This document shows positions 126 to 63,241 of a stretch of DNA of 64,000 nucleotides, piece after piece (position 1 is the first letter of the stretch; each line of letters opens with the position of its first letter). Under the pieces are notes generated by a model. It had not been told where the DNA came from, made no database searches, and worked only from the letters and a program-made list of their open reading frames with translations. The translations under genes and the position numbers were made by a program. Source of the DNA: Cyanidioschyzon merolae (Eukaryota). The stretch lies in NCBI GenBank assembly GCA_000091205.1, contig AP006499.2, one strand, 5' to 3'.

Positions 126-1742
126 ATGAACGCGCTCACCGCTTTGGATTCAGCATTGAACGAGTTTGAGCAGCTAGCAAGTGAGTGGTGCACCCTAGTG
201 AGACTCTTAGAGGCGGCTGAACTTGCGCGTGTCCGCGTAGAGCGTGGTGAGTGGGCGCCCTGGTGGAATGCCCGCCGTATCGTCCTTACCCGGCTGGCTC
301 GGCGCTGGAGTCGGCACTTGGCTTCCAAAAGCACTGCAGCGTGCGTTACTAGCCTCCGTTCGCTTCAGCAGAGCGTCGTTCCGAGTAGCCGACCCGCTGT
401 GACTGCAACAAGCACCAACGAAGGTTTGATCGCAACGCTCAGGCAGAAAGCACGAGAACCGCTGTCACCCCTCTCTGCACCGCTGCTCGGTGATACTGTC
501 GAAGAACTGCCCCTGATGGAAGCGGACTTGGACTTGGATTTCACCTCGGCAGAAGTCTCGGGGCTCTGTTTAGACTTACAAGAAGTCTATCGATCGTACC
601 TTTCGCTTCTTCCGCCATTGATAGCGAGCCAGTTACCGTATCTTCGTTTTCTTGAGATCCTCGAGGCGCTGCCTCGTTCCAATGAACTGCGTGCACTGGT
701 TGTGTTTCGAAGACTCGATGGCAGGTGTCTCCCGCCAGAGTGTTTAGATGCCTCTGCGCTCGAAGCTGCATGTCAAAAATTGTCCCCGGGTTGCCGCAAT
801 GCGTATGCCGGGTGGCTCCTTGACGTCCTCCGCTATTTGGTCGAGTTTGCGAGGCGCGCCATGCCATGGCTCTCCCCAGCACACTGGGACAGGATGCGGA
901 GCACTGGGCGAAAAATACCTTCGATTGTCCGGACCAAGCGAGAAGCAGAGGCGCTGAATACACCGCGACCTACAAAAGCGATACTCCGGATCGCAAGTGC
1001 AAGTGCAGACCAGCGACCCGATCACGATAGCATGCCCTCATCGAAGCACTCCACACATGTGGATACCGTGAACACTCCTGTCGACGTTTGGCTCGGTCAA
1101 GAGCTCGATCAGAGCGTTGCCCCCAACCTGGCCGATATCGAGACGCTTGAGCAACATCTCGCATCGCTTGTTACAGATGATGAGTGCGGCATTTTCAGGG
1201 CCAGTTTATTGCGAACGATTCGACACGTTGAGCGCCAGCAAGTCCAAACACTGACAGAATGGATGTTTACGAATCGTGTGGAGCAGGTGACACGCGAAGA
1301 CCTCGCAACGGAGCGTAGCGGGCAATGGTTCCTCCGAGCTGGACCACCAGACGCAGATGCATCGAACACAACGGGAATCAAGATCAACAAGTCCACAGCT
1401 GTGACTTCCAAGGAGGAAACCGAGAATTTCCCGGGCTGGTTACGACGTGCTTTTGCGCTTCATCAGGTTTATCGTTGCGAGATCTGCGATCCTGTCCAGA
1501 CATATTATGGACCGCTGGCTTATGAGCGTCACTTTCGATCGGCTGTGCATGTGCGCGGTCTCCATCGTTTGGGCGTTTACTATACCGCAGACTGGGATTA
1601 TATTGATACTGTGGCTGATGCGCTGCGACTCAAAGCACATCTCGCGAAGCTGAATGATTCGGGTCAGGTGGGCATCGTCGCTGTCGAGCGGGAAGCGGAT
1701 GGCGCGCCCATGGAGGCTAGCACTGGATCCAGTCGTACGTAA
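126..1742 (+). CDS. Hypothetical protein with a C-terminal U1/matrin-type C2H2 zinc finger
   Basis: 538-aa ORF with an ATG at 126. Its C-terminus has YRCEICD...(12)...HFRSAVH, i.e. C-x2-C-x12-H-x5-H spacing typical of U1-like/matrin zinc fingers. The rest has no recognisable family. Confidence 0.45.
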   Translation: MNALTALDSALNEFEQLASEWCTLVRLLEAAELARVRVERGEWAPWWNARRIVLTRLARRWSRHLASKSTAACVTSLRSLQQSVVPSSRPAVTATSTNEGLIATLRQKAREPLSPLSAPLLGDTVEELPLMEADLDLDFTSAEVSGLCLDLQEVYRSYLSLLPPLIASQLPYLRFLEILEALPRSNELRALVVFRRLDGRCLPPECLDASALEAACQKLSPGCRNAYAGWLLDVLRYLVEFARRAMPWLSPAHWDRMRSTGRKIPSIVRTKREAEALNTPRPTKAILRIASASADQRPDHDSMPSSKHSTHVDTVNTPVDVWLGQELDQSVAPNLADIETLEQHLASLVTDDECGIFRASLLRTIRHVERQQVQTLTEWMFTNRVEQVTREDLATERSGQWFLRAGPPDADASNTTGIKINKSTAVTSKEETENFPGWLRRAFALHQVYRCEICDPVQTYYGPLAYERHFRSAVHVRGLHRLGVYYTADWDYIDTVADALRLKAHLAKLNDSGQVGIVAVEREADGAPMEASTGSSRT

Positions 1743-2781
1743 GCACGTGATGATACCGCTTCTGTCCAGCGCTCGTATCGATATGCTGCGAAAACGATTT
1801 TGGAATATGACCGCTCGTGTCGGGCTGATGACGCCTTGTTTTCGCAGCGCCAAGTCAACAGAGCGCTGGTATCGGATGCTGGCCTTGGGAATCGTCGTCA
1901 TCGGGCTGGCAACTGCAGTGCAGGACCCTTTGGCAATCGTTTACGAACGCAAGCAGGCGGCGTCGTGGAACTGCAAAAGGCGAAAAAGACTCACTGTGTA
2001 CGGAATAATATTTGGCGCGCGGAAACCTCAACTAGCCAATAGAGTCCGGCATTACAACTGGTCAGGTGCACCACTCTCGTCAATGGCTCTGCTTTGCCCT
2101 GGCTCCAGCATACCGGAAAAGCGACTTGGTTGCCATGGAAGCTTGAGCTTCACCAGACGCTTACCGCGATGCGTAACAAGAGCAACATACGACGCTGCCA
2201 ATGGATGCATCGATACGAGTGCGCTTACGCATTTGCGTCCGTTTCTACGCGACTGAATGTTTTCGCTCTAAACAGTAAACCTCGACTGCAGCACATTGGC
2301 GATTCCATGTCGATTCGGAGGCACCGACAACAAACAGTAGACCTGCGCTGATTCAACCAGGGAACAAACTCGTACTGTGTTTCACCGGATGCGACGCGAC
2401 ATCTAATCGCACGCAGATTGGCAGGCCTTCCATAACAATACCTTGGCGTCAGCAGTGATAGCATCTCTGGTTGATAGTGGCAGAATGAGGCAGGCTCTCT
2501 CGCCCACAAACGACTATCTCCGCGTGAAAGCTCTGGAGGGAATCATCGTCCAGTTTTCACCTAAATGCGACGACACGGGAGCTAATTCCATCCACCCGGT
2601 ATCCATTGGCTGCGAATCCAAGTCTGTGAGCGCTTCTCTCAAATGAAGCTGCGATGATGCCCCAGGTCATTGTGAAGGCACCAATAACCATGGATAGCTC
2701 GGCAATGGACCGCTCTCGCAATGTGGCGCGCGCTTCGTACATGCGGATGCTGCGGGATTCTCGCGGTCGTATCCGAACCGA

Positions 2782-5700
2782 TTATGCATCATTCTTGTTC
2801 GTAGCATACGCTGCAAAACCTGACCGCAGGCCGTGGTGAGCAAGCTCCTGCTTCCGCAGCAGCATCTTGCTCCAGCTGATGGTATCCGGAGTGCGCCCTC
2901 GAACGAGCAGTAACGTCTCTACGGCTTGCAACATACGCAGAAGCACGCTCCGCTGCGTCGACGGGAGCACATCCTCTGCTTGACTCCGCAGACGATGCTC
3001 GAGTCCCGCGAGACGCTTACCGCACTCCTCGGCGAAACCAAGTGGCAACGTTCCATGTTCATTATGATGCACAAGCTGCTTCAGGAATAGCAACAGACTC
3101 CCTTCGAGCAAGAGAATACGACGTCGCTGCCGCTGGGGCATTTCGCTGCTGCTGTTCAATCCCTGCAGCCAGTGCAGCACCAACATGAGTCCGAGACCCA
3201 TAGTGGGCGTCTCGAGGTCCGTCCAAGTCATCATTGGCGCCCAGACTCCATAATGACCCGTAAGGTGCAGCGCAATCGATATCAGACGACCCATCGCTTG
3301 CTCCAGTTTGTCCGCGAGCGTCTCCTGGACGATAGTCAGCGTGCCCGAGATCGACGTTTGGGTGTGTCGCTCCCCGATTCCATCCTTCATCGAACTCGAT
3401 AGCATCAGCGGGTACTCAGCAAGTGAACCGCGCAACGAAGCATGCGTCCACATGCCCAGGTCGGGCAACGGAAGCGACAGCCACCGTGGTGCCATTCGGA
3501 GACAACGCAGTGCCGCAGCCAGACTCAAACCGACTTGTTGATAGCGTTGCTGGAGCCATTCTGGAGACCATTGTGACTCCAGTTCTGGTAAGAGATCCGC
3601 TTCGGGTGGCGAAGTGAGCAGCGCTTCGAGAAAACCCGCAATCGCAGAGAATTCAGACAGCATCGCCCAGTGCCAGGCGTAGGTTGTGGACCAGGCCTGG
3701 CGCGTCTCTGACTCACTCAGCCGAAGCGCTGTATCTAACCAATGACGGGTGAAGGCAGCGAGTTGCGTCGGTGCACCCTCAAACGAGGACACGAATGCGT
3801 ACACCTCGAGCCGTAGACGCTGCTGCGTTGCTGCAGTCGTGTGCGCACGCGCTTGCTGCAGGAGCACTGCGTACAATCGGAGCAGCATCAGATACATCAT
3901 AAAGTCCGATGTTGGTCGCTTACCATCTGGAGTTAAGCGTTGATGAATGCGAGCGCTTGAGAGCCGTCCCAGGCTCCAGAGTCCCTGCTGCTGTCGAATG
4001 ATCACATCTGCACAGCGCGCTGAACGCACTGCCCAGTTGAGCAGCAGCAGGACAAGCCACCAACGATGCGTCTGCTTGTTTGGCGGGGTTACCGGCGCAC
4101 AGAGTGCGCTGAAAACGACAGGAAGGAAACGCTTCGCCCACTCGGTTTCATCTAAGCGAGCCGGCGAAAACCAGAACTGACACAGCAGTGCGGTTGCAGG
4201 TTGTAGCGATGGCCAACGAGCCGACCGCTCCAGCAGACGCTGCAGGAGCCCTTCGCCGTACGCAAGCTCCGAGGCAGCGTATATCGTGGAGGCGGCCTCT
4301 CGATGCAAGCCTCCGTGGACGACCTGCTTGCAGAGCGCAAGCACAAGTCGTTCCGTAACACCAACTTCGAGGAGCACTTCGACAGAAGACGTCTCTGCGT
4401 CCGGGCGTAGCAGGCGCCAGCTTTGAATCCCAGCAGGATACCAATCATCGGTGCCTTTCATTTCGCTCATGACGCTTGCTTCCAGACGGTCCAGTTGCCT
4501 TTCGAGCGTCTGCAACAGCATTCGAACGTGGGATTGCATTCGCTGCATATCCAGTGCAGCAGAGGCTGCGAAAGCGATTCCAGTTGTTCGGCAACTCGCC
4601 GCGTTGTCTCCAGTAACTGCTGCTTCCAAGCGACTCAAGCGAAAGATGAGCTCAGTCCATGCCAGGCGTCGCATCGCCCCGAGTCCGGTACCAGTGTCGC
4701 TCGCACACAGACGAAGCAGTACCTGCTCGAGACGCTTCAGTGAAACGCTCCATGAAGCCTGTTGTGCAGGCAACGTCAACACGGGACGCTCCGTGGAAGG
4801 CTGTGGAGCCTCCACGACACACAACAGCAGCTCCAAATTGGTTGCCAAGACGGTCTGATGCAGCCACGGTATCCAAAGCTGGTCGGATGTGGCTAGGCTC
4901 TGGAGGACGAGCGCTTCTTTTCGGCGATTTTGCGGCTCGACGTCGAGATCCCGACTGAGGATCGTCTGCAGCACCAACAGCGTCGTCACTGACCAGAGCC
5001 CTGTGACATCACTTCTGTAGTGTTTGTTCCAGAGGATTTGGCCTTCTGGCCAGAGCACACGCTGCGACTCTTCCGTTTCGCCTATGCTTGCCGGTGGTGA
5101 ACACGTTGCGGAACCTTTCCCGGGCGTTTCGATATCGTCCGTGGGTACACGGCAGAGCAAGGTGATGAGCTCGGTCCACGCAGAAACGAGCGCTGGGTTC
5201 ATCGCCGACGACTTCGGGGCAGCCTCTGCGACGAGTTTGCGCTGTACTCCTTGCGTTGGTCGTGATCGCATCCAAAGTCGGTTCACAAGTTCGAGGAAAC
5301 ACGCGAGCACGATGCTCGTCGTAAAGACTGCTACCGCGGTTACTGAATCTGGTGCTTTGGCGAGAATACGCTTCCGCCAAGGGATCAACATATCTCGAAA
5401 CAGCATCGTCAGCCAGGATTCTACCTCTGGCGTCGACACCTGACCTAGTCCAAGGCGTACGAAGAGCGCTCCGAGCGGAGCGAGCTCCGTCAAGTTCACT
5501 CGCTGCTCCGTCGGAATGAAACACCGCCATTCATCCCAGAGGAGCTGCCAGAGGCGGCTCGAACGCAGCACACCAGATGCTGGTGACGAGAAAGGCGACT
5601 CTGAAGCGCGCCGCTCAGCGCTGCTGCTTCGCTCTTCGGTTTGCTGCGATACCCGGGCTGTAACAGATCCCCAGCTAACAAGCAGAGCGGCAGCATTCGG

Positions 5701-26338: not shown

Positions 26339-28225
26339 CTAACGATTCAGAGTGGCAGTGTTGACAGCAGGCACGCGCCGCTGACGCACAGCTCGAGGAT
26401 CGCTTCGATTCGAGACCACGGCGACAATACGTGACCATTTCAGCGCACCGAATGCGACTTCTCCGGCACTGGCGTGCAGCTCAACTAGGCGTCGTGCAAC
26501 GCGCATCTTAGCTTCCAGGACCTCGAGAGAAGCGTCCGTCGGGTCGCAGAGCCATTCCACAAAGTCCGCCATACTAGCCAACGCGACAACTCCGATTCTC
26601 GACAGACTTAGCGCAGCGAATACCGCCGCAGCAGCGAGCCGCTCTTCTTCCGAAGGATGCCGTGCACAGTCCAGGACAATGGGCAGTGCATTCGTGAACG
26701 CCTTGACGGCATCCGCATCCCTGATCGCATCAGTGAACAGATGCAGCACCCTTTGCTGCCGAAATTCGAGGTCGGATTCGGAGGCTCCGTACCCTGAGAC
26801 GGCTGCTGATGAAAGCGGCTCGTCGAGACCTGCCAGGAACACACTCAAAGCACGCAAGGAGGCCACTCGAATATCGCACACGCTCGCCGTATGAATGAAA
26901 CGAAGCGTTAGTTTCAAGGTGTCAACGTCCGCAAGCAGCACGTCCATGCCGCGTTCACAGAGCCCCAGAGCGCCTACCGCGGAGATCAGATGCACCAGCA
27001 GCGTCGTCCGACGAACTTGATCAAGTTGTACGGACCAGTGTGCTGTCTCAGTCTCGCCATCTACCACGTGAACCAAGAGAAAGCGCCCAAGAATCTCTAC
27101 GAGATTGGCGTCCATCCAAGCGTGGAAGGCGCAACGGCTGGACCCGGCACTGGTGCGCACGAACCTCAGAATCCCACACATCCAAATAAACCAGCGTTCC
27201 GCCAAGTCGCTCGAGGCAGGCTCGTCTGGCGCCAACAAATGGGCAAGGTGTTGGCGTAGCAGCACATCGAATACCGAAATTTGGTCGAGCAACTCGGCTG
27301 CTATTGCACTGCGTTGCATAAAAGCCCCAAGCACATCCAGCAAGTTCAAGCGGAGTAGCAAGTCCTCATCCAAACGAACAGGAGCTGCGATTTTGGCTAC
27401 AAGCACGGTTGGCAACAGCCGACGTGCGGCAATCTCTGCAACAGACGAGTAGTCGCAGATCTCAAGCAGCAAGCTCAAGGCTCGGATATGCGCAACCGCA
27501 CCCGCTGCACCCGAGAGCATCTCCTGTACGAGGATTTGCGCGCCTCGTGCTTCGCTGAAGAGCACAACTGCGCCGCGGAACGGCTTCAGCTGTACCAGGT
27601 TCTTCAGGATTTTTTCACAAAGTCCCGCAGCTTCGGTGGATGGATCATCACGGAAGCTCAGCAGCACCAGTGACAGGATATCGCTGGCGTGCTGTGCAGT
27701 TGTGCTGGGAGCGTTCACTTCTGGACCTGGCGCTTGTGCGGCCTCTATCTCCGGACGAAGCTCGTTCGTACTTTCAAAACGTTCGATAATGGTGTCTGCA
27801 ACTTGCTGACAAAACGCTTCAGGCAAGTCATTCCGTTCAAGAAGGAGACAAAGCAGACGAAGCGCAGCTGTGCGTACCAGCGGGTACCGGCTGCTCAGAC
27901 CGAGCTGGATGAGCTGGAGCACCTGCTCTATAGGTACGAGGTGACGCACTCGGGCACTTGTTGCAGAAAGCTTGACCAGTTTCTCCATTGTTTTCGTTAA
28001 TACCCGGATGGAATCAAATATGTTGTCAGAAGGTACCGCGTCGCTGTCTGAAGCCTCGAGCGACGCCCGCACCGCGTACTCCTCCAGTGTCCAGCCCAGC
28101 AGCGGTAACGGCAAACGCTCCAGCAAGTCCAGTGCCGCACACTCCGACAGTGCTCCAGCGTCTACATATTCCCTCACTGTATCCAATACTTTATCGGGAG
28201 TCCAGTCATTGTGGTGAGCGTTCAT
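26339..28225 (-). CDS. Armadillo/HEAT-type helical repeat protein (hypothetical)
   Basis: 628-aa ATG-initiated ORF (cat at 28223-28225). Leu-rich amphipathic repeats throughout, with no catalytic motifs. Confidence 0.45.
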   Translation of the reverse strand: MNAHHNDWTPDKVLDTVREYVDAGALSECAALDLLERLPLPLLGWTLEEYAVRASLEASDSDAVPSDNIFDSIRVLTKTMEKLVKLSATSARVRHLVPIEQVLQLIQLGLSSRYPLVRTAALRLLCLLLERNDLPEAFCQQVADTIIERFESTNELRPEIEAAQAPGPEVNAPSTTAQHASDILSLVLLSFRDDPSTEAAGLCEKILKNLVQLKPFRGAVVLFSEARGAQILVQEMLSGAAGAVAHIRALSLLLEICDYSSVAEIAARRLLPTVLVAKIAAPVRLDEDLLLRLNLLDVLGAFMQRSAIAAELLDQISVFDVLLRQHLAHLLAPDEPASSDLAERWFIWMCGILRFVRTSAGSSRCAFHAWMDANLVEILGRFLLVHVVDGETETAHWSVQLDQVRRTTLLVHLISAVGALGLCERGMDVLLADVDTLKLTLRFIHTASVCDIRVASLRALSVFLAGLDEPLSSAAVSGYGASESDLEFRQQRVLHLFTDAIRDADAVKAFTNALPIVLDCARHPSEEERLAAAAVFAALSLSRIGVVALASMADFVEWLCDPTDASLEVLEAKMRVARRLVELHASAGEVAFGALKWSRIVAVVSNRSDPRAVRQRRVPAVNTATLNR

Positions 28226-28471
28226 TCAGCAACAGGTTATCACGCTTTGAGATAGACATATCCAGAAGCAATCTCCTGATCGGCGGCGGGGCGCAGGTCA
28301 GCCGCTGCGCGTGCACGCGCACCTGGCAGATCCGGCGGGCACGAGACACGACGCTCTGGTCGCTCCTGAGGGGAACAGTGATCCTGATCATTGGCGTGCT
28401 ATTCTACTGTAAAAGTTGTATTCGCGTTGAGGTCGTAGCAAAGTATAGGTTTTCTGTTCCATCCTATTCCG

Positions 28472-30876
28472 ACCCTCAATTGAGTATATTCAAGTGTTTT
28501 TTCGAAGTATATAACAGAAGCGTTCAAAGAGCGTTCGTTTTCAAAAAAAATTAAAAGGAAAGTCATGGAAATGGAAGTGGAGGATCCCGGAGGGCCGATA
28601 TCGCCGGCTGTCGGAAAAGAAGGATAAACATGGCGGAGCAAAGAGGAACAGGAATTGATGAAGAATCAAAAGGGGGCGAGGTTCTAGGTCGAAGGCGGCA
28701 AGAAAGGCAACTGTACAACGAGATAGTGGTGAAAGCCTGTGTTCTTAAATATATCAAGGATCCGTAGAAGGAAAAGTTGCGGGACGCCATCAAAAACCGT
28801 CTCGAGTCGTACTCCATGAGTATTATAAAGGCTTCTTCAGGACCGACGCATTTGGTGAGGGAGATGTATCGCTACGTGACGAACATGGAAACGGTCGGGA
28901 TTCCGGACGAGTTTTTCGATAACACATTTTTTCGTCACTTGATGCTTGGCACAGGGGAAGAGCGGAAGGATATAAGAGCCAGTGCATGCCCTTCACGAAC
29001 AACATCCCTTTTAGAGGTTCGAGGGTAATCGAAACAAGGGGGCAGGGGTATTTACGACTATGGGGCGATGAAGTACATCACGAACCTGAAGAACCATTTG
29101 ACAACGAACCTCGAACGTTTCATGATACGCGCCGTGTTTGCACTCTACCGGGGCCTGTCTCGCAAAGGAATATGGGCGATTATCAATGGCATCATGAACG
29201 ATCGAAACTATGGAAATGAGGTCGAATTCGTTGACAAGAAGGAGTCAAACCAGAGCACGAATGAGGATTCTGTAATCCGTGCGGCTATTAAAGAGCATCG
29301 TGCGGTCTTGGGGTTGGCGAATCCAGCAGAAAAGATATCAGCGTTGAAAAAAGATAGGGAAAGATACGATCGCCTCATTCTGCGCTATTCTGTGTTTCTG
29401 GACCGAGAGCTCGAACGCAAAGCGGAGATGAAGCTGAGTGAAGAGACAAAGGAAGAGTGGGAGAGACGGAAGGCTTTCCGAATGGGTAAGCGCTTCGACG
29501 TGGTTCCAATGTGCAAGATCAAGTCACATTTTATGACTATCGACTCCGGCCTCTTTTACGGCATCATGAAGGAGATCTGTCCGGAGTTCGATGTAAGGAA
29601 GACAGAGTTCCCCGGTGAAAACCGTGAGACGTACTGGAAGAATATCTTCGATTTCAAACGTCTCAAAGTCAGCAAACAAAAGGTATTCACTGGGTTGATC
29701 GAAACCGATGGAGTAGCCACGTGTGTACAATATCGGCGCTTGAAGAAAAATCGTCCAGTTCCGCCCTCGGCTTCGCCCGTTACGAAGCATGAAGATGAGA
29801 AGGAGTCGGATCCAGCGATGCAGGAGGTAGAGGATAACGACCTAGTCGTTGACGCGGAGAAGCATGAAGATGAGACGGATGCGGATCCTGCGATGCAGAA
29901 AGTGCAGGGTAACGACTTTGTCGTTGGCGCGGATCCCGGAAACACAATATCATCACCATCGCAGTACCCAAGCATGCGAAAGATGATATCAACGGCAAAT
30001 TATTCCAGAGCGACATGCGTCGGTTGAGGTCCTCTAGAGCAAGATAATATCGAAAAAAGTCGGGAATCATGAATGCAAGAAAGAAAATCGAGACGTAGAA
30101 TGCAGGAATGAAAGGGCACCTGGAAGCTTTGAGCGAGGTGACGAGCCGCAGAGCGGACTTTCAAGCTTTTCCGGAATTCATGGAAGTTCGTGTTGCTCAT
30201 TGGGAGGCGCTGTGGAAAGAACATACAAAGCCTCGGTGAGCTCGATTGCGTATGAACCTATACGGTGGGAGGCAGCGGGCGTTTGCCAACTTTTTCAATC
30301 ATTTGAGCGCCCTCTAAGAGATTGAAAGTCAGAGGCCCGTAGTAGCTTATGCAACAGGGCGCTGAGCGCCCAAAAAAGTACGTACACCAGCTCCAACGAC
30401 GAGAGCGTACAAAGAGTGTGCAAGGCGTTACGTAACGATACCGATAGATGAGTTCCGAACAGCGTATGTGCATTATGAACTGGGGTGCGTACTTCAGACG
30501 GTCGAAATGGAAAAATGCCAACGGAGTCCTGAAGACATAGCAAAGTACGGGCCGCTGACCGAAGAGCAAATGGGAAGGAGAGCGAAAGTTCGAGGACCAC
30601 TTTCATCAGTAAGTACAACCAATGATGGCAAGACGCGTATGGAGTTTGTGAATCGTGACTTTAACGCCGCTATCAATATACGGAAGTGCGCGGTGCTGGA
30701 GAGAAGGCGTCCACAGCTGACACGAGAGCGCTTTGTTGGACAATTACTCAAAGCCGAACTATATGAGAAACAGTTGGAAGCAGTAGTAGGTGGCCGTTCC
30801 AAAAAGACCGGGAGACTTCTGCGCATCAGTTGTAGACGTTTCGTCTAGGGCGGGTTTCTCGCCACTACTGTGCACC
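28472..30876 (+). mobile_element. Fanzor/TnpB-like (IS200/IS605 OMEGA-family) element, copy 1, heavily decayed
   Basis: Homologous end-to-end to 60867-63189 at roughly 80 % nt identity. It encodes the Fanzor N-terminal region, RuvC-I (VVGADPG), a zinc-finger-like segment (YVHYELGCVLQTVEMEKC) and RuvC-III (MEFVNRDFNAAINIRKCAV). Left-end motif: GTGTTTTTTCGAAGTATATAACAGAAGCGTTC. Right-end block: GCCACTACTGTGCAC. Confidence 0.65.
28565..30848 (+). pseudogene. Fanzor (eukaryotic TnpB-like RNA-guided nuclease) pseudogene, copy 1
   Basis: The reading frame is split into pieces at 28565-, 28777-29028, 29068-30027 and 30468-30848. Relative to copy 2 it has a roughly 110-bp internal deletion, a 69-nt tandem duplication ([12 protein letters not shown]...), a 1-nt deletion just after GADPG, an in-frame TAG (ctctagag vs ctcgagag) and a TGA in the last segment. 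Confidence 0.6.
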
Positions 30877-31202
30877 GTTGGCAGGAACGCTTTTCTTTGG
30901 AAAGGCGTTTGATGGTGTACACGGATGCGTGCATGCGTGCGTGCATGCGTGCGCAACATCCCGCTCACAGTGAATACGCACAAAGCATTGTCGTTGTTCG
31001 CCGTGCAGTGCCGAGAATGCTGCACCGCTGCAACAGCAGTGCGCGTCTCTTGGCACTGCTAAGCGCGCTTCGCCTGCATGTCGCCCATACACCGTCGTTA
31101 CGGACCCAGCGACTGCATCATGGGCGCTGCATTAGTGGCAAACCATCGGTGTCTGGTTCACCGCCAGGAAAGCAGAGTCACCCGCGCCTGCATGGGTGGC
31201 GT

Positions 31203-45035: not shown

Positions 45036-45985
45036 TCAATAGAAACGCAACAAACGTGCCTTTCTTTTTTTGTGCTGGCTTTCCAGAACGCGATCAGGTC
45101 TGTGCCGCTGTTCCCGGGAAAGCGCACATCCCATCTTTTCCTGGTATGAGAAACAGGAGTTTCGTGGTGATGCGAAACGCAACAAACGTGCCTTTCTTTT
45201 TTTGTGCTGGCTTTCCAGAACGCGATCAGGTCTGTGCCGCTGTTCCCGGGAAAGCACACATCCCATCTTTTCCTGGTATGAGAAACAAGAGTTTCGTGGT
45301 GATGCGAAACGCAACAAACGTGCCTTTCTTTTTTTGTGCTGGCTTTCCAGAACGCGATCAGGTCTGTGCCGCTGTTCCCGGGAAAGCACACATCCCATCT
45401 TTTCCTGGTATGAGAAACAGGAGTTTCGTGGTGATGCGAAACGCAACGAACATGCCTTTCTTTTTTTGTGCTGGCTTTCCAGAACGCGATCAGGTCTGTG
45501 CCGCTGTGCCCGGGAAAGCGCACATCCCATCGTTTCCTGGTATGAGAAACAGGAGTTTCGTGGTGATGCGAAACGCAACAAACATGCCTTTCTTTTTTCG
45601 CACTGGCTTTCCAGAACGCGATCAGGTCTGTGCCGCTGTTCCCGGGAAAGCACACATCCCATCGTTTCCTGGTATGAGAAACAGGAGTTTCGTGGTGATG
45701 CGAAACGCAACAAACATGCCTTTCTTTTTTTTGTGCTGGCTTTCCAGAACGCGATCAGGTCTGTGCAGCTGTTCCCGGGAAAGCGCACATCCCATCGTTT
45801 CCTGGTATGAGAAACAGGAGTTTCGTGGTGATGCGAAACGCAACAAACGTGCCTTTCTTTTTTCGCACTGGCTTTCCAGAACGCGATCAGGTCTGTGCCG
45901 CTGTTCCCGGGAAAGCACACATCCCATCTTTTCCTGGTATGAGAAACAGGAGTTTCGTGGTGATGCGAAACGCAACGGCCGCAAT
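45036..45985. repeat. Tandem array, 132-bp unit x about 7.2 copies
   Basis: The CCCGGG landmark recurs at 45113, 45245, 45377, 45509, 45641, 45774 and 45906. Units are about 90-95 % identical and each contains the palindrome TTCCCGGGAA. It is intergenic, between uL4 and the 987-aa gene. Confidence 0.9.
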
Positions 45986-52679: not shown

Positions 52680-54210
52680 CAAGGTTGTTGCGAAACGCTC
52701 ACTGGCCGGGCGCTTCCTGTTCAGGCGGTTCAATGGTGAGCGGGGCAGTCGTCGCCAGGGCAGTGGCGATAGATTTCGAACCCCAATGCAAACGCATAGG
52801 GCGTGTATCTCAGTGAAATGCTATAGAAACCTGTATATTCCAAAGAAAAATCTGCGAAGCGTCGGAGTGATAAAGTGCATGCCGGGGACAAGCGCTGATC
52901 CGACGTACCCGTGGCATGCTCGGAATCGAGTCACGACTTGGTGATACCTTCCTGCGCACATCAGCGCACTTTTGCTTCACGGACGTACGCGAAGTACTGA
53001 TGAACGATGGAACAACATATGTTTCTACCGATTGCGCAGGAAAAATCGTAAACGATATATATATGGCGCTGCTATATTCATGGATTGCTGGACGGATCGT
53101 ACCAGTGCCTCGTTCGCGCGAGAATCGCATGACTTTACACCTCGCGACTGATTTTTACATCGCCAGACTTTCTGTTTTCAGCACCATGTCCATAAAGAGT
53201 ACTACACGAGTACCTCGCGAGCCCGCTCGACACAAGGCTGTTGGACGCTCCCGATGCACGAGACATTTCCGGATGTTGGTTGAGGCATACAGGTCTCCGT
53301 GCAGAATGCCTCTGCCTATGTTTGCCTGCGGAATCGCATCATTGCAAGACGCTCATTTTCGATTGCCTCGCCAGTTGGCGTTCGATCAGCTTACCGTTCA
53401 CCATCTCGTGCATGCGACTATTCACTACGCTCTTCTTCTGTGCACGGTTCAGCGTACAGCCATGCTTGTGCAGCTTGCGTATCGTCCTGAATATATCGAT
53501 GGAAATTGTCCGGCATGGATTGGTGCACTCTTTGGACGCTCTCGTTGAATGAGCAGGTGCGCATCCAGTTTGACAAGTGCTGTATTGGATGCACGGAACG
53601 TTCAGGATAAGCATGCGAAGAAGCGTGCTTCACTCATCGAAGGACTTTCGAATACCTGATTTGAACAAGTAAGGCCGTTTCATCCAATTACCATGAAACA
53701 TATCAGTTCCTTTCACCTCTTTTTCCAACCCACAAGATGCATTCCTTTTGTTGAACACATCCCAGATAAACACCCAAAAAAGTCCTAATGGTCTAGGCGT
53801 TCTAGAATTCACCACCCTAGTTATACCGACAATCACCATTTGCGTGTCCGTGCATCTTCGACGAGTCGCTCGCGGTATCGACCGCCCCATCCGCACCGCA
53901 GTTGCGCTGCAGCGTGCAACAGCGCATGCGATCCTGCATCAGCAGCTAGCCGCGAACCTGCATGGCACGCGGCATCCACGCCGCCGAGTCTCCAAAGCGT
54001 ACCAGGAACACGAAATCCCAATCCCGAAACCCGAACGGTCTGGTACGAAGAAAGCATCAATGCAGCTCCGCATGTCCATACCCATCGCACACATGAAGAA
54101 GCACACCAGGTACTGGAATGTAGCCTCTAGCAGAGCATCCCGGTATTGGGTGATCGTTCCCGCCCACGTTATCCCGGGATCTCGCTTCAACGATGATTGT
54201 ACAAGCGAAT

Positions 54211-54515
54211 CGCCCTCTTTAGAGCCCCTAAAGGTGGACGCTGTACAGATCGTCCTCTCCAGCGCACATGAAGGCTGCCGCTGTACAGATCGCCCTCTTC
54301 AGAGCCCCTAAAGGTGGACGCTGTACAGATCGTCCTCTCCAGCGCACATGAAGGCTGCCGCTGTACAGATCGCCCTCTTCAGAGCCCCTAAAGGTGGACG
54401 CTGTACAGATCGTCCTCTCCAGCGCACATGAAGGCTGCCGCTGTATAGATCGTCCTCTTCAGAGCCCCTAAAGGTGGACGCTGTACAGATCGTCCTCTCC
54501 AGCGCACATGAAGGC
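54211..54515. repeat. Tandem repeat, 80-bp unit (two diverged 40-bp halves) x about 3.8 copies
   Basis: AGAGCCCCTAAAGGTGGACG recurs at 54221, 54301, 54381 and 54461. Each unit is CTGTACAGATCGTCCTCTCCAGCGCACATGAAGGCTGCCG + CTGTACAGATCGCCCTCTTCAGAGCCCCTAAAGGTGGACG. It lies about 100 bp upstream of the Pol-X ORF. Coordinates here may be off by 1. Confidence 0.85.
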
Positions 54516-54626
54516 GGACATCGACGCGCATGCACCGAGGCGATCTCTCGCCAAATATCTCTGAGGGAAAACGAGAGGGCTCTCTACTGTACCTCAGGTG
54601 CGCGTGCCGCTACCAAGTCCGATTGA

Positions 54627-56795
54627 GTGGAGAAAGGCTCACTTGGAATGCCCCGCGCAACGAATCGGAGTTCTAGTGCGGCTGAAAGTGCTGCTGACAA
54701 CGGGGATACGCAGAACTCGGGCAACCTGGGGAGTGGAAGCGCGCGAGCAGCGCCGCGACTGCGAGGCCCCGGGAGAGCTCGTGGTGCCTGGCGTGGAGTA
54801 GCAAACGCGAGCGCTGCTACCTCGGGTCGGGTGCCTGCATCGCGATCACGAGTCACGCGAAGTCGATCAGGGACCAGTGCGAGTCCAGAGGCGACAGAAT
54901 CGACGGATCCAGTGGCTACGGCAACCGGAGCAGCTCCGCCGACACCTGTGGAGCTCTCCGCGGTACTCGCCTCGGTAAGTGCAAACGAATACAATCAGGC
55001 GCTCGCAGCGGAGTTGCTGGAGTTAGCGGAAGTCTACGAGTCGGGGTTTGCATCGGCGTATGAGCCGTCGCTATTCCAGCAGTTTGATGAGCGAGACTTG
55101 CGGCGAGCGCAGTCGCTCCGGTATGCGGCCTGGCGCGTTCGCCAACTTCCCGAAAACTGCGGTATTTTGGTACTGGATGAAGCCAGCCTAGCACAAGTGT
55201 TGTTTGAGGGACAATGGATAGCGTTTGCAAAGGAGCCTCATTTACCTGTAAGTCAGAACGGCGTACCTGTCCACATAGACGTGCACCATGCTGAGGCGGC
55301 AGCAGCTGCAGCCACGGGACTCGACACCGAGGACGCGCCGTATCTAAAACTCTTCCAGAGGGTTCCCATGACGCGCGTGATTTTCTTCGATGTGCTCCCA
55401 GCCGTGCGCGAATTTGCTCTACTTTGGGGATCGGGTATCGCCAGAGGCAGATCACCAGAAAATCTGCTCGAGCTTCGCACCTTTCGAGACGAGAGTGCAG
55501 CCCAGGCGCTGACGCTCTTTCATTGTGTCTGGCATGCGAAACGAATTCGCGCAATGCAGTGGTATCATGCGGGGTGCAAAACGCTGGAAGAAGTTGCATC
55601 GCGGTGTCGTCTCACGGACAAGAGGTTTCAATTGGGGATTCTCTACTACGATGATTTTCGGCTCTTGGTGCCGTACGGCGAGGTTGCAGCGATTACGAGC
55701 ATCTTTGCGTCGGCGTCTACGGAGATCGATGCAGATCTCTCGGTGATTCCGGTCGGTGCACTTCGACGCAATTACCAGGAATGCGGCGATGTGGACTTGA
55801 TCGTGACAGGCGAACCGGAAACCCTGCACCCCGACGGTGAACGATACGGCTCGTTGAAAGCGCTTATCAAACTGCTCCGTGAGCGACATTTCATAACGGA
55901 TGAGGCGGTTTCCATAGAGGTTGCAATGCAGCGACTGCAGCGGATACGCGAGAGCGAGGCCTACATGGCCGCGCACATGGGTCTGCTTCCCGACGAGCGC
56001 ACGAAGCCCTATGTCCGACCCGACTGGGCGGGCATCATCCAGGCGCCCGGATACCCGTCCGGGCCGGATGGTAACAGGCACAGCGACAGCTGCACCGATG
56101 CTGCGTACAACCTTCCAGCACTGGGCGGTGCCATGGTGCAAACTGCATCTAGCTGGGCGGGCGTGGACTTGCTTTCCTCGTCGCTGCCAGCAGCGGAGTC
56201 CATGGCTGGCGTTACGGCATCGGTGTCGGAGGAGTCGACTGCCCTGATGGCAACGGCCGCGAAGTCACAGTCCCCGCTACCGTACTGGTGGGCAACGCAT
56301 CTGCACGACGACGAACTCGATACGGAGGATGAGGTCACCTGGTCTGGAGTCGTTCGTCTCGCCGGGAAACCGCATCGCAGAGTGGATATCTATGTTGTCG
56401 AGAAAGATGAGCTACCCTGGGCACTGATCTGCTACACGGGCTCGCGAGCGTTTGTGAACGCCTTGTTGCGCCACGCCCGGCAGAAAGGATTGTACCTGAG
56501 TGCCCGTGGTGTCCGAAAGCTAGGTCATGCGTTGGGTCCAGGCTCGGGAGGTTTCGTAGCGCTCGAAGGGCCCGCGATGCACAAGGAGCGATCGTCGGAC
56601 GCAGGCTCCCGCGCAGCGTCAACTGCGATGGACTGCTCGGATACGCGGGTCGAGGTCGATCCCATGGAACGGTTTCGCAACGTGCATTCCGAGCGTGCAG
56701 CGTTCGAAGCACTCGGTCTGCGGTATCGAGAGCCCACCGAACGGGAATCAGCAGATGATCTCATCGTTGCTCATGAAATACCGGAAGTATCTTGA
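54627..56795 (+). CDS. Family-X DNA polymerase (Pol beta/lambda-like) with a low-complexity N-terminal extension
   Basis: An 8-kDa-like domain (NEYNQALAAELLELAEVYE), palm with YQECGDVDLIVTG, and thumb ICYTGSRAFVNALLRHARQKGLYLSARGV. The annotated start is GTG; an internal ATG (MPRATN) lies about 21 nt downstream. Confidence 0.75.
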   Translation: MEKGSLGMPRATNRSSSAAESAADNGDTQNSGNLGSGSARAAPRLRGPGRARGAWRGVANASAATSGRVPASRSRVTRSRSGTSASPEATESTDPVATATGAAPPTPVELSAVLASVSANEYNQALAAELLELAEVYESGFASAYEPSLFQQFDERDLRRAQSLRYAAWRVRQLPENCGILVLDEASLAQVLFEGQWIAFAKEPHLPVSQNGVPVHIDVHHAEAAAAAATGLDTEDAPYLKLFQRVPMTRVIFFDVLPAVREFALLWGSGIARGRSPENLLELRTFRDESAAQALTLFHCVWHAKRIRAMQWYHAGCKTLEEVASRCRLTDKRFQLGILYYDDFRLLVPYGEVAAITSIFASASTEIDADLSVIPVGALRRNYQECGDVDLIVTGEPETLHPDGERYGSLKALIKLLRERHFITDEAVSIEVAMQRLQRIRESEAYMAAHMGLLPDERTKPYVRPDWAGIIQAPGYPSGPDGNRHSDSCTDAAYNLPALGGAMVQTASSWAGVDLLSSSLPAAESMAGVTASVSEESTALMATAAKSQSPLPYWWATHLHDDELDTEDEVTWSGVVRLAGKPHRRVDIYVVEKDELPWALICYTGSRAFVNALLRHARQKGLYLSARGVRKLGHALGPGSGGFVALEGPAMHKERSSDAGSRAASTAMDCSDTRVEVDPMERFRNVHSERAAFEALGLRYREPTERESADDLIVAHEIPEVS

Positions 56796-58861: not shown

Positions 58862-60866
58862 GCTCTACCAAAGCCGCAGCCTCCACCAATAACGTACAGA
58901 ATGAAAACGTAGTCCCAGAAACGTTCGAGCGCCTCTGGAACCCCGACTTGTCCACAAGGCGCTGCTCGTGCTCGTGGCGTGCACCCCAGTGGTGCAGCGT
59001 CCGGGCACCACGCAGGCAACGCTACGTGTCCATGCACGCATCGATCGCACGTATCGATCGATTGATCGATCGATGCGCAGCGGCGGCTAGAGGCGCTCAG
59101 CGGCCGCCGCTGCCGCCTGTGCATCCGGTCCGGTGCCGGGGTGAGCACGACGCGCCTGCTCGAGCGCGAAGCGGCAGCGGCTCTTCGCATGCAGTGCCTG
59201 TTCGTTGTAGCGAGGTTTGTTCTGGGTCGGCGTTGGGTCATTCGACGAAATGCTCTCCGACGCACGGGCGCTGGTCGTTGGCGATACATGAATACGAGCT
59301 GGATGGAGAAAGGAATAGCGGCATCGGGCTGAGCGCTGGGAAGCGGCGCGTCGATGCGTGCGTGCGCTGCTGCGCTCTTTTCCCTGATCTGCGCGGGCGA
59401 TGTGTGTCTCTGGCGTTTCCGCATCGATGCAGCAGGGATCCGAATAGTGATCTGAGCGTCGCTTTCTCGGTTATCCTATGACTGCGAAAAAGTGTCGAGC
59501 GCGGAATTTGCGGTCGACTGCAGCATCGACGGAGCGGATACGACGCCCGCTCCCTGGCGACGTCGATTTGGGGCGCTGGCAACCGCGGTGGCCAGCGGGG
59601 CTGTTCACACCCAGCGGTATGCGAGCGCTGAGGTGTCGCGCAGAACGGTTGACCGTCTCCATGGCGACGCTACTGAGACACCATGCGCAATAGCCGGTGT
59701 GACATGAAGTGCCGGATGCGATCACGCGGCTTTGCTGGACGATTTCGGATGCTTCTCGTAATCGAGCGGCATGCTTTCCGAATCACTGAGAAAGCGCGCT
59801 TCCGGGGCTTCGAACACGCATCGCGCTCCGCTGATGCATCTGGAGAACCCGGCACTGTGGTCAGCTCGAGGTCGGAAAATGTGCTGCTCGGCTTCGCCGG
59901 CTGGGAAACGGAATCGCATCGACACGAAGTGTGAAGAAGACGCTGTCTGCGTTCTCTCGTTGCAAGACAGCTGAGCGTTGTGTTCAGCGGTGCCCTGGTG
60001 CCCAGCAGCGCAACCGCGTCCATCTATGCGACGTTTCACCAATGACAGCCACGTGCATGAGCACTCGCACCTGACACATCGTTAACGTTCTGAAAACAGC
60101 ACCGATGCGACCGCCCCCGTCTGCTTCTGGCCAAGGAGCGCTCCCGACGTACAGTTAAGGAGGTCGCGAACGGTGTGTGCGGCACGCGCCGGTTGCGTCA
60201 CACCGGTACGTTCCGAGCGAGCGGTTCCCCCACACGCAGCCGCAGAACGCTAAACCATCCTCTGGACCCCAAAACGCTGGTGCAAAGAGCCGCCCCCAGC
60301 CAAGTACCCTGTCTATGTGGAAGGCATTTCGCACTGGTGCATGCGCCTCGCCCACCTGTGCATCGCGTGGGCGCGCGGCGAGCATTGCGGCGAGCGCAAA
60401 TGCAGGATACCGGGAGATAATTGCAACATGGGCGACGCCCAGACGCAGCTTAACTGCCCCTAGTCCCAGAATACAATGCGTTGCGGACGATTTGCGCAGC
60501 TCACGTAGCAGTACCTGCCACTGCAGAGTCGAACGGGTGACGAGCCTGGCAGACTGCTCCGGCTCGCGGGACCTTTCGCGTGGAAGGAAAACTTTCTAGA
60601 ATACGAAAAGCTTTTCCCCTTTCAAAGTATATCACAGAAGGGGAAAGCAATACATATACATGCCGGTGAATCCAGAGTCTATGTGCGTTAATCTAAATAG
60701 CGCGCGCTAGATACGCGCATCACGAGATCTGGCTGGCACGAGATACGATGCGCATGTCGCCGTTGAAGAGAAAAGCGATTCCGATCAGAAGCGTGTTCTA
60801 CCGGAACAAGTTGGATTTCCGTTGGAGTTTTACAAAAGAGCAGTTTTTTCATTTCATTTGGTCTTC

Positions 60867-63189
60867 AACCCTCAAACAAGTCTAGTAAAGTGTTTTTTCG
60901 CAGTATATGACAGAAGCGTTCGAAGAGCGTTGTTTTTCAAAAAAACTAAAAAATGAAAGCTATGAAAAAGCAAGTCGACGATCCTGGAGGCTCAGTGTGG
61001 CTGGCTGCCAGAAAAAAAAAACAATAAACATTACCGAGTCCAGAAGAAAAGGAAGAGAAAAAGAACCGAAAGGGGGAGGCTCTACGTCGAAGGCCGCAAG
61101 AAAGACGACAGTACGACGAGATGGTGGTGAAAACCTTTCTTCTTGGACATACCAAGGATCCCTGCAGGGAAAAGTTGCGAGACGCTGTCGAAAAACGTGT
61201 CGACTCTTACTTCAGGAATATTGTGAAGGCGTCGTCAGGACTGATGCATTTGGCGAGGGAGATGTATCGCGACGTGACGCACATGGAAACGGTCAAGATT
61301 CCGGACAAGTTCTTCGACAAGACCTTTATTCGACACCTCATGCTTGGTACAGAGGAAGCGCGGAGGGAAAATGAGCGGGTGCACGTCCTCCACGGAAAAC
61401 ACTCCTTTTACAGCTTTAATGGTACTCGATACAAGGGTGACCGGGATATGTACGACTATGGGGCGATGAAGTACCTCACGAACCTGAAGAACCATCTGAT
61501 CGTGAACCTCGAACGTTTCATGATACGCGCCGTAGTTGCACTCTACCCGGACCTGTCTCGCCAAGGAATATGGGCGATTATCAATGGCATCACGAAAGAT
61601 CGCAGGCGTGAAGACGAGGTCGAATTTGTCGAGAAGAAGGAGTCAAACGAGAGCACGAATGAGGATTCTGTAATCCGTGCGGCTATGAAAGAGCATCGTG
61701 CGGTACTGGGGTTGGCGAATTCAGCAGAAAAGATATCAGCGTTGAAAAAAGATGAGGGAAGATCCTATCGCCTCATTCTGGGATATTTTGTGTTCCTGGA
61801 CCGAGAACTGGGACGCGAGGCAGAGATGAAACTGGGTGAGGAAAAAATGAAGCGTGGGAGAGACGGAAGGCTTTCCTAATGGGGAAGCGCTTCAACGGCG
61901 TTCCAATGTGCAACATCAGTTCACATTTTGTGACTATCGACTCCAGAATCCTTTACGGCATCATGTAGGAGATCAGTCCGGAGTTCAGTGTCAGCAGGGA
62001 GGAGTTCTCCGCTGAGAAGCGGGAGACGCACTGGAAGAACATCTTCAATTTCAAACTTCTCAAAGTCAGCAAACAAAAGGTATTCACTGGAATGATCGAA
62101 ACCGATGGAGTAGCCACGTGTGTACACTATCGGCGCTTGAAGGCAGATCGTCCAGTTCTGTGTTCAATATTGTCCGTAACGAAGCATGAAGATGAGAAGG
62201 AGGCGTATCCTGCGACGCAGAAAGTGCAGAATAACGACTTTGTCGTTGGCGCGGACCCCGGAACCACAAATATCGCAACCATCGCAGCACCCAAGCGTGC
62301 GGAAGATGGTACTGACGGCAACCTACGTCGGAAAGACGTGCGTCTTTTGAGGCTCTCGAGAGCAAGATACTATCGAGAATCGGGAATCATGAATGCAAGG
62401 AAGAAAATTGAGGCATGGAATGCAGGAATGAAAGAGCACCTGGAAGCCTTGAGTGAGATGACGAGCCGCGGAGCGGACTTTGAAGCTTTTCGGAAATTCA
62501 TGGAAGTTCGTGTTGCTCATTGGGATGCGCTGTGGGAAGAGTATACAAATCCCCGGTGCGCTCGTCTGCGAATGAATCTGTATTGTGGGAAGCGGCGCGC
62601 GTTCGCGAATTTTTTAATGAGTGCCTTGAAGGAGAATGAAAGTCAGGGCTCGTGGTAGCGTACGGAGCAGGGCGCCGGAGGATACAAAAAGGGTGTACAC
62701 CAGCTCCAACGGCAAGAACGTACATGGAGTGTGCACGGCGTTTTGTTACAATACCTGTAGATGAGTTTCGAACATCGTATACACACCATGAGCTGGGTTG
62801 TACACTTCAGAGAGTGGAGATGGAAAAGTGCCACCGGAGCCCTGAAGATATAAAAAAGTATGGACGGCTGACGGAAGAGCAAATGGAAAGGACGTCGAAA
62901 GTTCGTGGACTCCTTGCATTAGTAAGTACAACCAATGATGGAAAGAAGCGTATGGAGTTTGTGAATCGTGACTTTGATGCCGCTATCAATATCAGGAAAT
63001 GTGCGGTGATGGAGCATAGACCTCCAGAGTGGACAAGAGTGAATTTTGTTGGACAACCTCTCAAAGTCGAACTATATGAGAAAAAGTTGGAAGCAGTATT
63101 CGGTAGACTGTTCAAAAAAACTGGGAGGCATCTGCACGTCAGTTGGCGACGTCTCGTCCAAGGCGCGGTTGCCGCCACTACTGTACACG
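60867..63189 (+). mobile_element. Fanzor/TnpB-like (IS200/IS605 OMEGA-family) element, copy 2, less decayed
   Basis: Same left-end motif (GTGTTTTTTCGCAGTATATGACAGAAGCGTTC) and right-end block (GCCACTACTGTACAC) as copy 1. It encodes RuvC-I VVGADPGTTNIATIA, RuvC-II-region AFANFLMSALKE, the zinc-finger-like FRTSYTHHELGCTLQRVEMEKC, and RuvC-III MEFVNRDFDAAINIRKCAV. Confidence 0.7.
60953..63170 (+). pseudogene. Fanzor (eukaryotic TnpB-like) gene, copy 2, disrupted
   Basis: Coding potential of about 740 aa is spread over three frames: 60953/61121-61879, 61879-62658 and 62652-63170. There is a 1-nt deletion near 61850 (relative to copy 1), an in-frame TAG at about 61966 (AAG in copy 1), and a frame change at 62642-62670 that coincides with a GT...AG 29-nt segment. 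Copy 1's stop codon (TAG) is CAA here, so the ORF runs on to 63395. Confidence 0.6.
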
Positions 63190-63241
63190 CCCGACGTCGT
63201 TCGACTTTCGAGCGGCGTTTGGCCGGTGTCACCTCTAATCC

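Follow-up and report, generated by a model that had tools for sequence, protein, structure and literature searches.

Two decayed copies of CMe-1A, a Fanzor1-encoding transposable element family, on chromosome 17 of Cyanidioschyzon merolae

Introduction

Fanzor1 proteins are eukaryotic relatives of TnpB and Cas12 that carry one RuvC nuclease domain. In Fanzor proteins, the RuvC-I aspartate lies in a D-P-G context, as opposed to the D-hydrophobic-G of TnpB (PMC10711439), and the canonical RuvC-II glutamate is replaced by an inert residue, with an alternative glutamate found downstream just before [TS][TS] (PMC10530073). "Many" Fanzor proteins, not all, have a zinc finger (PMC10711439), and the guide RNA scaffold of TnpB and Fanzor ends at the right end of the element (PMC10530073, PMC10711439). 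The sole Fanzor1 family described in Cyanidioschyzon merolae is CMe-1A (Bao & Jurka, 2013, Mobile DNA 4:12; PMC3627910), with about 150 genomic copies that each show about 80% identity to a consensus of roughly 3 kb (3169 bp in the supplement of that study). It contains a one-exon open reading frame (ORF) for the 734-aa CMe-1 protein, and its 5′ 635 bp correspond to a separate element, TE-N2_CMe. The family has no terminal inverted repeats (TIRs; table entry "N") and its target-site duplications (TSDs) are listed as undetermined. Some copies are still intact, and the long-lasting coding capacity of the family was remarked upon (PMC3627910).

Here, we describe two segments in a stretch of 64,000 nucleotides of C. 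merolae DNA (hereafter, the window), which an earlier note, made from the sequence alone, had read as diverged paralogs of a Fanzor-like element. We are highly confident that window positions 28315-30912 (copy A) are an inactive, 5′-truncated relic of CMe-1A and that 60386-63222 (copy B) is a second, less decayed copy. For both we demonstrate family identity, boundaries, lesions, Fanzor1 homology and a signature of selection.

Results

Two segments of the window match the published CMe-1A consensus

28315..30912, plus strand: copy A of CMe-1A (limits from BLASTN with the consensus; 3′ end at about 30912 from a multi-copy alignment)
60386..63222, plus strand: copy B of CMe-1A (consensus 333-3137 and beyond; 3′ end at about 63222 from a multi-copy alignment)

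The window belongs to chromosome 17 of C. merolae 10D and is nuclear DNA, encoding CMQ418C, nuclear poly(A) polymerase and uL4m, among others. Five of its proteins are exact C. merolae 10D entries; the host of both copies is C. merolae, as it is for CMe-1A. A trypanosomatid, which the long intron-less ORFs might suggest, was rejected as host because genes lie on both strands and because of these exact matches. When the published 3169-bp consensus from the supplement of PMC3627910 was used as BLASTN query against the window, copy A matched consensus 658-3169 in two blocks, 28315-29858 (85.0%) and 29853-30907 (84.2%), and copy B matched consensus 333-3137 at 60386-63188 (84.5% over 2816 columns). 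Missing from copy A is consensus 1-657, that is, the TE-N2_CMe-like 5′ part, and from copy B consensus 1-332. A third, weak match was found on the minus strand at 24757-24549. The 5′ end of copy A is backed by homology with the loci L004 and L001, which starts at 28315 and 28327, respectively, and an alignment of about 50 copies places the common 3′ terminus, ...GGAAAGGCGTT, at about 30912 in copy A and 63222 in copy B. Both copies belong to a family already described in the literature and in Repbase, and their membership is nothing new.

BLASTN comparison of the window with itself yielded two collinear plus-strand blocks, 28472-29858 versus 60868-62255 (82.6% over 1393 columns, E = 0) and 29859-30875 versus 62181-63188 (80.9% over 1021 columns, E = 0). 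Global alignment of the two segments, the check proposed for the repeat, revealed continuous similarity with small indels only, not confined to low-complexity sequence. The repeat reported in the earlier note is thus real from end to end, but the limits given there (28472-30876 and 60867-63189) fall short at the 5′ side, by about 150 bp in copy A and about 480 bp in copy B, and by about 35 bp at the 3′ side. The view that the segments come from an old multicopy family of a Fanzor-like element also held, as both copies are about 85% identical to the CMe-1A consensus and some 150 copies have been published.

The single intron-less CMe-1 ORF can be aligned throughout in both copies, though disrupted. 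A scan of the window for ORFs and protein families found no other ORF with a family match inside the element and no transposase gene in either copy. In the inverted-repeat scan, no terminal inverted-repeat pair appeared in copy A, and the only inverted pair in copy B (19 nt, 79%) reflects the palindromic 3′ hairpin described below. Target-site duplications could not be defined from the element junctions of the copies. A GCGTGCACG motif stands directly 5′ of copy A (about 28305-28314) and a GCGTGCAT-type short repeat (ATGCGTGCATGCGTGCGTGCATGCGTGCG) directly 3′ of it (30925-30965); as a target-site duplication, these flanking motifs are too weak to call. At both loci GC content dips to 0.50-0.52, versus 0.55-0.61 around them, and the plus strands are purine-rich.

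Motifs, fold and profile searches link the CMe-1 protein to Fanzor1

29926..29940 in copy A, 62248-62262 in copy B, plus strand: RuvC-I motif GADPG (Fanzor-type "DPG")
30339..30359, plus strand: strand VVAYATG at the canonical RuvC-II position, with Gly or Thr where TnpB has the catalytic Glu
30444..30464, plus strand: IDEFRTA, the alternative (rearranged) RuvC-II glutamate, aligned to DEFRTS in PpFz1 and DEYKTS in SpuFz1
30651..30680, plus strand: RuvC-III motif NRDFNAAINI (NRDFDAAINI in copy B)

The family consensus reads VVAYGAG at the canonical RuvC-II position, and VVAYGAG or VVAYATG is followed 33 residues downstream by VDEFRTS or IDEFRTA. The RuvC-III motif, which holds the "RD" of the motif of Bao & Jurka, is nearly invariant among 116 relatives. 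Taken together, the diagnostic motifs of the window copies (GADPG, VVAYG, DEFRTS and NRDFNAAINI) fit the published Fanzor signatures (PMC10530073, PMC10711439).

Neither a Pfam scan of the separate ORF pieces and of the stitched protein nor phmmer searches of the Protein Data Bank (PDB) with the stitched protein and a 10-sequence profile gave a significant family or a relevant match; a precomputed hit names PF26935 (DUF8286). Database searching recovered 47 close relatives, almost all from JGI hot-spring metagenomes, plus distant intact proteins; one of the intact relatives, P0044, is 40% identical to the stitched copy B protein over 95% of the query. A profile search widened the set to at least 138 proteins of about 600-700 aa, and a 116-sequence alignment served as the basis of the final AlphaFold2 model and of the family profile. 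The P0044 model built on it reached a predicted local distance difference test (pLDDT) score of 92.2 and a predicted template modelling (pTM) score of 0.89; it superseded a poor first model (10-sequence alignment, pLDDT 55), whose fold matches to Fanzor1 had TM scores of only about 0.3. In a Foldseek search of the PDB, the top seven matches of the P0044 model were all Fanzor1 (SpuFz with E 1.5e-17 and TM 0.66/0.72, then PpFz and GtFz), and the next was Cas12f (TM 0.24/0.35). The 116-sequence profile, run against 177,635 PDB sequences, found only PpFz1 (1e-18), SpuFz1 (5e-12) and GtFz1 (8.5e-3), in alignments that include the DPG, DE[FY][RK]TS, GLL.C and NRD motifs. These fold and profile results support the Fanzor1 identity of the CMe-1A protein and bear out the earlier suggestion of a Fanzor-like element.

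Two observations weigh against this assignment. The C4 zinc finger (CxxC...CxxC, OrfB_Zn_ribbon/TNB) expected between the glutamate and RuvC-III was not found in CMe-1, whose corresponding region reads YTHHELGC-x9-KCQ, with only two cysteines (HHxxxC...CH), and most members of the clade are devoid of any CxxC pair. Moreover, the fold and profile tests were made on the intact relative P0044 (40% identical) and the family profile, not on the broken copy. Bao & Jurka nevertheless placed CMe-1 in Fanzor1 (PMC3627910).

The relatives form a clade of at least 138 Fanzor1-like proteins (P0044 and P0113-P0227; alignment A5) in which CxxC...CxxC is missing and RGLLWC.S is conserved instead. Few of its members reach Pfam TNB (PF07282), namely P0205 and P0214 in precomputed annotation and, below threshold, P0046 (E 2.4e-4).

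Lesions inactivated both copies after a period of purifying selection

28565..30848, plus strand: remnant of the 734-codon Fanzor1 (CMe-1) ORF of copy A, from the retained ATG (MEMEVEDPGG) to the ancestral TAG
28966..29041, plus strand: frame-shifted stretch of copy A between a +1 insertion at 28966 and a -1 deletion at 29041
29784..29858 and 29859..29933, plus strand: two tandem 75-nt (25-codon) units of copy A (Tandem Repeats Finder: period 75, 2.0 copies, 84% matches)

Lesions were called by codon-aware alignment of both copies to the published CMe-1A ORF, to which copy A is 85.6% and copy B 86.8% identical; the upstream ATG is kept in both. Copy A has nine premature stops (28625, 28765, 28973, 29012, 30045, 30096, 30237, 30315 and 30363), frameshifts of +2 at 28676, +1 at 28966, -1 at 29041 and -1 at 29946, an additional local -1/+1 indel pair at 30369/30382, and in-frame changes of +75 and +3. 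Copy B has two premature stops (TAA at 61025 and TAG at 61966), frameshifts of -1 at 61842 and 62647, in-frame changes of +3 and -6, and has lost the natural stop codon. Copy A is therefore the more decayed of the two (nine versus two premature stops), as proposed. Its many TAG, TGA and TAA triplets agree with the TAG/TGA stops reported before, and the 1-nt deletion described right after GADPG was located at window position 29946. Today copy A does nothing, and a functional product, for instance via programmed frameshifting, is very unlikely because of the nine in-frame stops.

One claimed lesion does not exist. In place of a roughly 110-bp deletion in copy A, we found segments of equal length (200 nt each at 28896-29095 in copy A and 61294-61493 in copy B). 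At 28966-29041 the shifted frame of copy A still reads EPVHALHEQHPF*RFEGNRNKG, with ERVHVLHGKHSFYSFNGTRYKG as its counterpart in copy B; the supposed deletion arose because only one frame had been read across the +1/-1 indels. The lesions of the two copies had also been described as independent. This is true of all but one, a TAA at consensus codon 21 that is common to both copies (28625 in copy A, 61025 in copy B). It lies in an A-rich tract, and in 27 of 30 other copies aligned there the codon is AAA or AAG, the T being common only to the close relatives of copy A, L012 and L013. This shared stop may have arisen by parallel mutation or gene conversion, or it may be a tolerated change with an alternative start further downstream.

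As to the in-frame tandem duplication, its presence in copy A was correctly recognised, but the unit is 75 nt (25 codons) long, not 69 nt. The units encode ..KHEDEKE.DPAMQ.V..ND.VV.A immediately upstream of RuvC-I, and they number one in copy B and in the published consensus, two in copy A, and three to six in the relatives P0001, P0006 and P0007. Since unit number varies among relatives, we regard the array as a copy-number-variable 25-aa repeat N-terminal to the RuvC-I strand and not simply as a lesion.

An identity switch falls inside the same array at the locus L013:1-4026 (metagenome contig Ga0080006_1142693), which we compared with window 27156-30883. It is orthologous to copy A in the upstream flank (99.2%) and in the first 1.6 kb of the element (97.0% overall), whereas identity drops to 79% in the last 1.1 kb and the sequence downstream of the element is not related to that of copy A. 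The switch could stem from ectopic recombination between copies or from a chimeric assembly.

The ratio of nonsynonymous to synonymous substitution rates (dN/dS) was computed by the Nei-Gojobori method, with out-of-frame values as controls. Between copies A and B it was 0.45-0.48 in frame, whereas the other two frames gave 0.77 and 0.93, and it was lowest in the RuvC half (0.31-0.34). A majority consensus was also derived from copies A and B together with 30 non-redundant metagenomic copies. This 32-copy consensus, a reconstruction that the earlier note had proposed, has a single open frame to the same TAG, broken only in the misaligned repeat array. Measured against it, dN/dS was 0.37 for copy A, 0.35 for copy B and 0.35 as the median of all copies, with out-of-frame values of 0.9-1.2. 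In-frame ratios of 0.35-0.48, compared with out-of-frame values near 1 (0.8-1.2), answer the question that had been posed of whether selection preceded inactivation: most of the divergence between copies A and B accumulated under purifying selection before they died and was followed by neutral decay. This history agrees with an old multicopy family and with the long-lasting coding capacity noted by Bao & Jurka. A near full-length open frame was kept in only one of 71 further related loci recovered from hot-spring metagenomes.

A conserved, hairpin-terminated 3′ end is a candidate guide RNA scaffold terminus

30849..30912, plus strand: conserved 3′ non-coding end of copy A, with a small hairpin, an invariant block and a terminal hairpin (42-copy alignment)

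Conservation over the 64 nt that follow the stop codon equals or exceeds that of the coding region. The first hairpin (GGCGGG..CTCGCC) contains one fully compensated pair, CG in 16 and GC in 14 sequences (RNAalifold), and is separated from the terminal hairpin by an almost invariant CGCCACTACTGTRCAC / CGCCACTACTGTACAC block. The terminal hairpin, of 10-13 bp, ends 0-2 nt from the element boundary in about 30 of the 42 copies and lies at 30886-30909 in copy A (10 bp) and 63193-63219 in copy B. Its position is filled by at least three different sequences across copies, A and B included, and on the common alignment 79.7% of cells are paired, versus 35-66% when the partners are slid.

To judge from TnpB and Fanzor elements, this 64-nt hairpin-terminated end would be the best candidate for the end of the fRNA (Fanzor guide RNA) scaffold. 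Against this stand the modest covariation support for the terminal hairpin, whose score lay above all but 4 of 500 shuffles, the RNAalifold result for the last 260 nt of the 42 copies, in which only one short (5-bp) hairpin was supported, and an Rfam scan of the whole window, which gave no matches; in addition, the hairpins could act at the DNA level instead of as RNA. Long-range pairing of a 16-mer within the ORF with the conserved 3′ block was also considered and rejected, being no more frequent than chance (about 0.5 expected).

At L007:295-500 and L038:300-505 we noticed solo 3′ terminal modules of about 110 nt (GGAAGCGTCTGCACGTCAGT...CGCCACTAC...hairpin), preceded by unrelated sequence and sitting about 700 nt upstream of another CMe-1A unit. 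Their arrangement suggests short non-autonomous derivatives or tandem insertions.

CMe-1A copies share one 3′ terminus and differ at their 5′ ends

Measured from a common anchor, homology among copies stops at -16/-20, -155, -183, -308 or -565 on the 5′ side, and all share one 3′ terminus. The 5′ portion of about 650 bp in long CMe-1A copies is a separately mobile module, equivalent to TE-N2_CMe, that occurs in either orientation at other places. Solo 5′ modules were seen at L055:345-984 (minus strand), L035:1941-2495, L022:3780-4039 and others, often right beside Fanzor units. The last 70 nt or so of the TE-N2-like module are the first 70 nt or so of short units such as copy A.

Other relics and repeats in the window

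The minus strand at 25600-24549 holds the relic of a composite element made of a DDE_3 (IS630/Tc1-mariner-like) transposase and Fanzor. Its decayed transposase matches Pfam DDE_3 with E 0.017 and, in BLASTP, the intact L003 transposase with E 7e-15. It is followed by a Fanzor C-terminal fragment that contains NRDLNAGINIRRC and shows 72% identity to CMe-1A consensus 2806-3018; the Fanzor ORF is otherwise largely deleted. The minus strand at 53611-53176, where GC content dips locally, holds a fourth relic of a Fanzor C-terminus, which is strongly diverged; its protein identity to family members is 34-55%, and it is closer to the P0044 type (..NIRKCLVHRERPTALCR..).

Two tandem arrays were also found. 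One, at 45042-45976, consists of 7.1 copies of a 132-bp unit (96% identical), with ORFs open on both strands across the array. The other, at 54209-54519, is made of 3.8 copies of an 80-bp unit (98% identical), each comprising two diverged 40-bp halves, and is located just upstream of a DNA polymerase beta/lambda-like gene (54627-56795).

Discussion

The ancestral element encoded one intron-less 734-aa Fanzor1 protein that had the Fanzor-type "DPG" RuvC-I and a relocated glutamate for RuvC-II. Its homology to SpuFz1, PpFz1 and GtFz1 suggests that this protein used a guide RNA (omegaRNA/fRNA) transcribed from the 3′ end and cleaved DNA that matches the flanking sequence of the element. Long diversification of the family, during which purifying selection acted on the protein, preceded the death of copies A and B and their neutral decay. 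RNA-guided nuclease activity of CMe-1 and the role of its 3′ end are inferred.

For the copying route of CMe-1A, which has no transposase of its own, the alternatives are mobilisation in trans, copying anchored at the 3′ end and nuclease-driven homing. In the first case, CMe-1A would be a non-autonomous derivative of a Tc1/mariner-like (IS630/DDE_3) transposon that carried Fanzor1 as a passenger; a DDE_3 transposase would move it in trans, Fanzor1 being only an accessory. We consider this origin unlikely, although several observations favour it. Intact relatives lie directly downstream of a DDE_3 transposase gene in L003, L076, L077 and L079, and in L003 and L079 the DDE_3 and Fanzor unit is enclosed in inverted repeats of 41 and 30 nt, respectively, which share GGGACACC. 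The window itself contains a decayed DDE_3 relic (about 25600-24950, minus strand) beside a Fanzor C-terminal fragment, and some Fanzor1 have been linked to Mariner/Tc1 in published work (PMC3627910, PMC10530073). However, neither a DDE_3 transposase gene nor flanking TIRs occur in copy A, copy B or the consensus: our scan found no terminal inverted repeats at their ends, in line with the table entry in PMC3627910, and the TIR motif GGGACACC has 0 matches in the whole window. No TA target-site duplication could be defined, and variable 5′ ends with a constant 3′ end are atypical of cut-and-paste elements with TIRs.

Alternatively, CMe-1A might spread via its own nuclease. The two-hairpin 3′ end would then be the terminus of the fRNA scaffold, with a guide that extends into the flanking DNA; vacant or related sites would be the targets of Fanzor1, and the element would be copied by repair synthesis that is primed from its 3′ end. 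Such a route would explain the constant 3′ end and the variable 5′ ends, the long selection on the ORF (dN/dS of about 0.35) and the frequent juxtaposition with other copies or TE-N2-like modules. We nevertheless hold it to be quite improbable; if it were true, the Fanzor1 clade without the zinc finger would be active.

Replicative copying from the 3′ end that often stops early strikes us as highly doubtful, whether by target-primed reverse transcription of a long interspersed nuclear element (LINE) acting in trans or by break-induced or homing synthesis after a Fanzor cut. Copying of this kind would give a fixed 3′ end and truncated 5′ ends. Copy A indeed starts at consensus 658 and copy B at 333 with both reaching the 3′ end, homology stops at varied 5′ points across loci that share a single 3′ terminus, and Fanzor1c is reported to be associated with LINEs, among other elements (PMC10530073). 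On the other hand, the 3′ end carries neither a poly(A) tail nor a simple repeat, no reverse transcriptase lies in the vicinity, and many independent copies start at the same place, the junction with the TE-N2-like 5′ module, a shared start that fits modular composition better than random truncation; deletions after insertion may also have produced the 5′ truncations.

We give practically no credence to the idea that the segments are paralogous host genes, a segmental duplication or an integrated giant-virus fragment, for which one could cite that only two full-length copies lie in the window and that the relative P0175 is on a contig with a D5_N primase-like gene, since homology ends sharply on both sides at flanks of unrelated host genes, metagenome contigs carry dozens of copies whose flanks differ, the published count for the C. 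merolae genome is about 150, both copies are pseudogenes, GC content is lower than in the surroundings, and the match to the published CMe-1A consensus effectively refutes it.

Taken alone, copy A matters little: it is one of about 150 decayed copies catalogued in 2013, and should be masked or annotated as a CMe-1A pseudogene. The interest of the family is independent of this dead copy. CMe-1A is a mildly interesting natural experiment, in which a Fanzor1 gene unaccompanied by a transposase remained under purifying selection while nucleotide divergence reached about 15-20%, having lost the zinc finger by which the superfamily was defined, with an expandable 25-aa repeat beside a catalytic strand and a conserved hairpin end. 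C. merolae is a thermo-acidophilic alga, and CMe-1, in an intact or consensus form, could be a candidate for an RNA-guided nuclease that tolerates heat.

Comparison with known systems

With prokaryotic TnpB (IS200/IS605 and IS607), CMe-1 shares the single RuvC domain with its D..E..D triad and a weak TNB similarity (PF07282, E 2.4e-4 in P0046), and a guide RNA at the right element end would, by analogy, be expected for CMe-1 too. The differences are the DPG in place of D-hydrophobic-G, the relocated glutamate, with Gly at the canonical site, an N-terminal half that is much larger, the lack of a TnpA partner and a eukaryotic nuclear host. Considered as a candidate, a prokaryotic TnpB is ruled out by DPG, Gly at the canonical Glu, the missing TnpA and the eukaryotic host.

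Among Fanzor1 elements, those associated with Mariner/Tc1 (PUl-1, PUl-2 and PUl-4 of Pythium ultimum) have TIRs of 24-33 bp and TA TSDs (PMC3627910). The nearest intact CMe-1 relatives that we found are built alike, with Fanzor1 downstream of a DDE_3 transposase and inverted repeats of 30-41 nt around both, whereas a transposase gene and TIRs are both missing from copies A and B and from the CMe-1A consensus.

The solved Fanzor1 structures, SpuFz1 (8GKH, 9CEU-9CEZ), PpFz1 (9CF0-3) and GtFz1 (9CER-T), match the P0044 model over the full length (TM 0.55-0.73), and profile homology spans the REC-like region and the RuvC domain, although sequence identity is only 11-15%. On the strength of these structures, CMe-1 would be an endonuclease that cuts dsDNA under RNA guidance. 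SpuFz1 and PpFz1 retain the first CxxC of the zinc finger (VCPRC and FCPKC), in contrast to CMe-1 and most of its clade, and the variable 25-aa tandem repeat just before RuvC-I sets the CMe-1 family apart.

Closest of all is the CMe-1A family itself, with which copies A and B share the host, the single-ORF organisation, the 3′ terminus (...TTTTGAAAGGCG) and the absence of TIRs. Copy A differs from the consensus by the extra 75-nt unit, nine stops and several frameshifts, and copy B by a variant terminal hairpin sequence in the last 32 nt or so.

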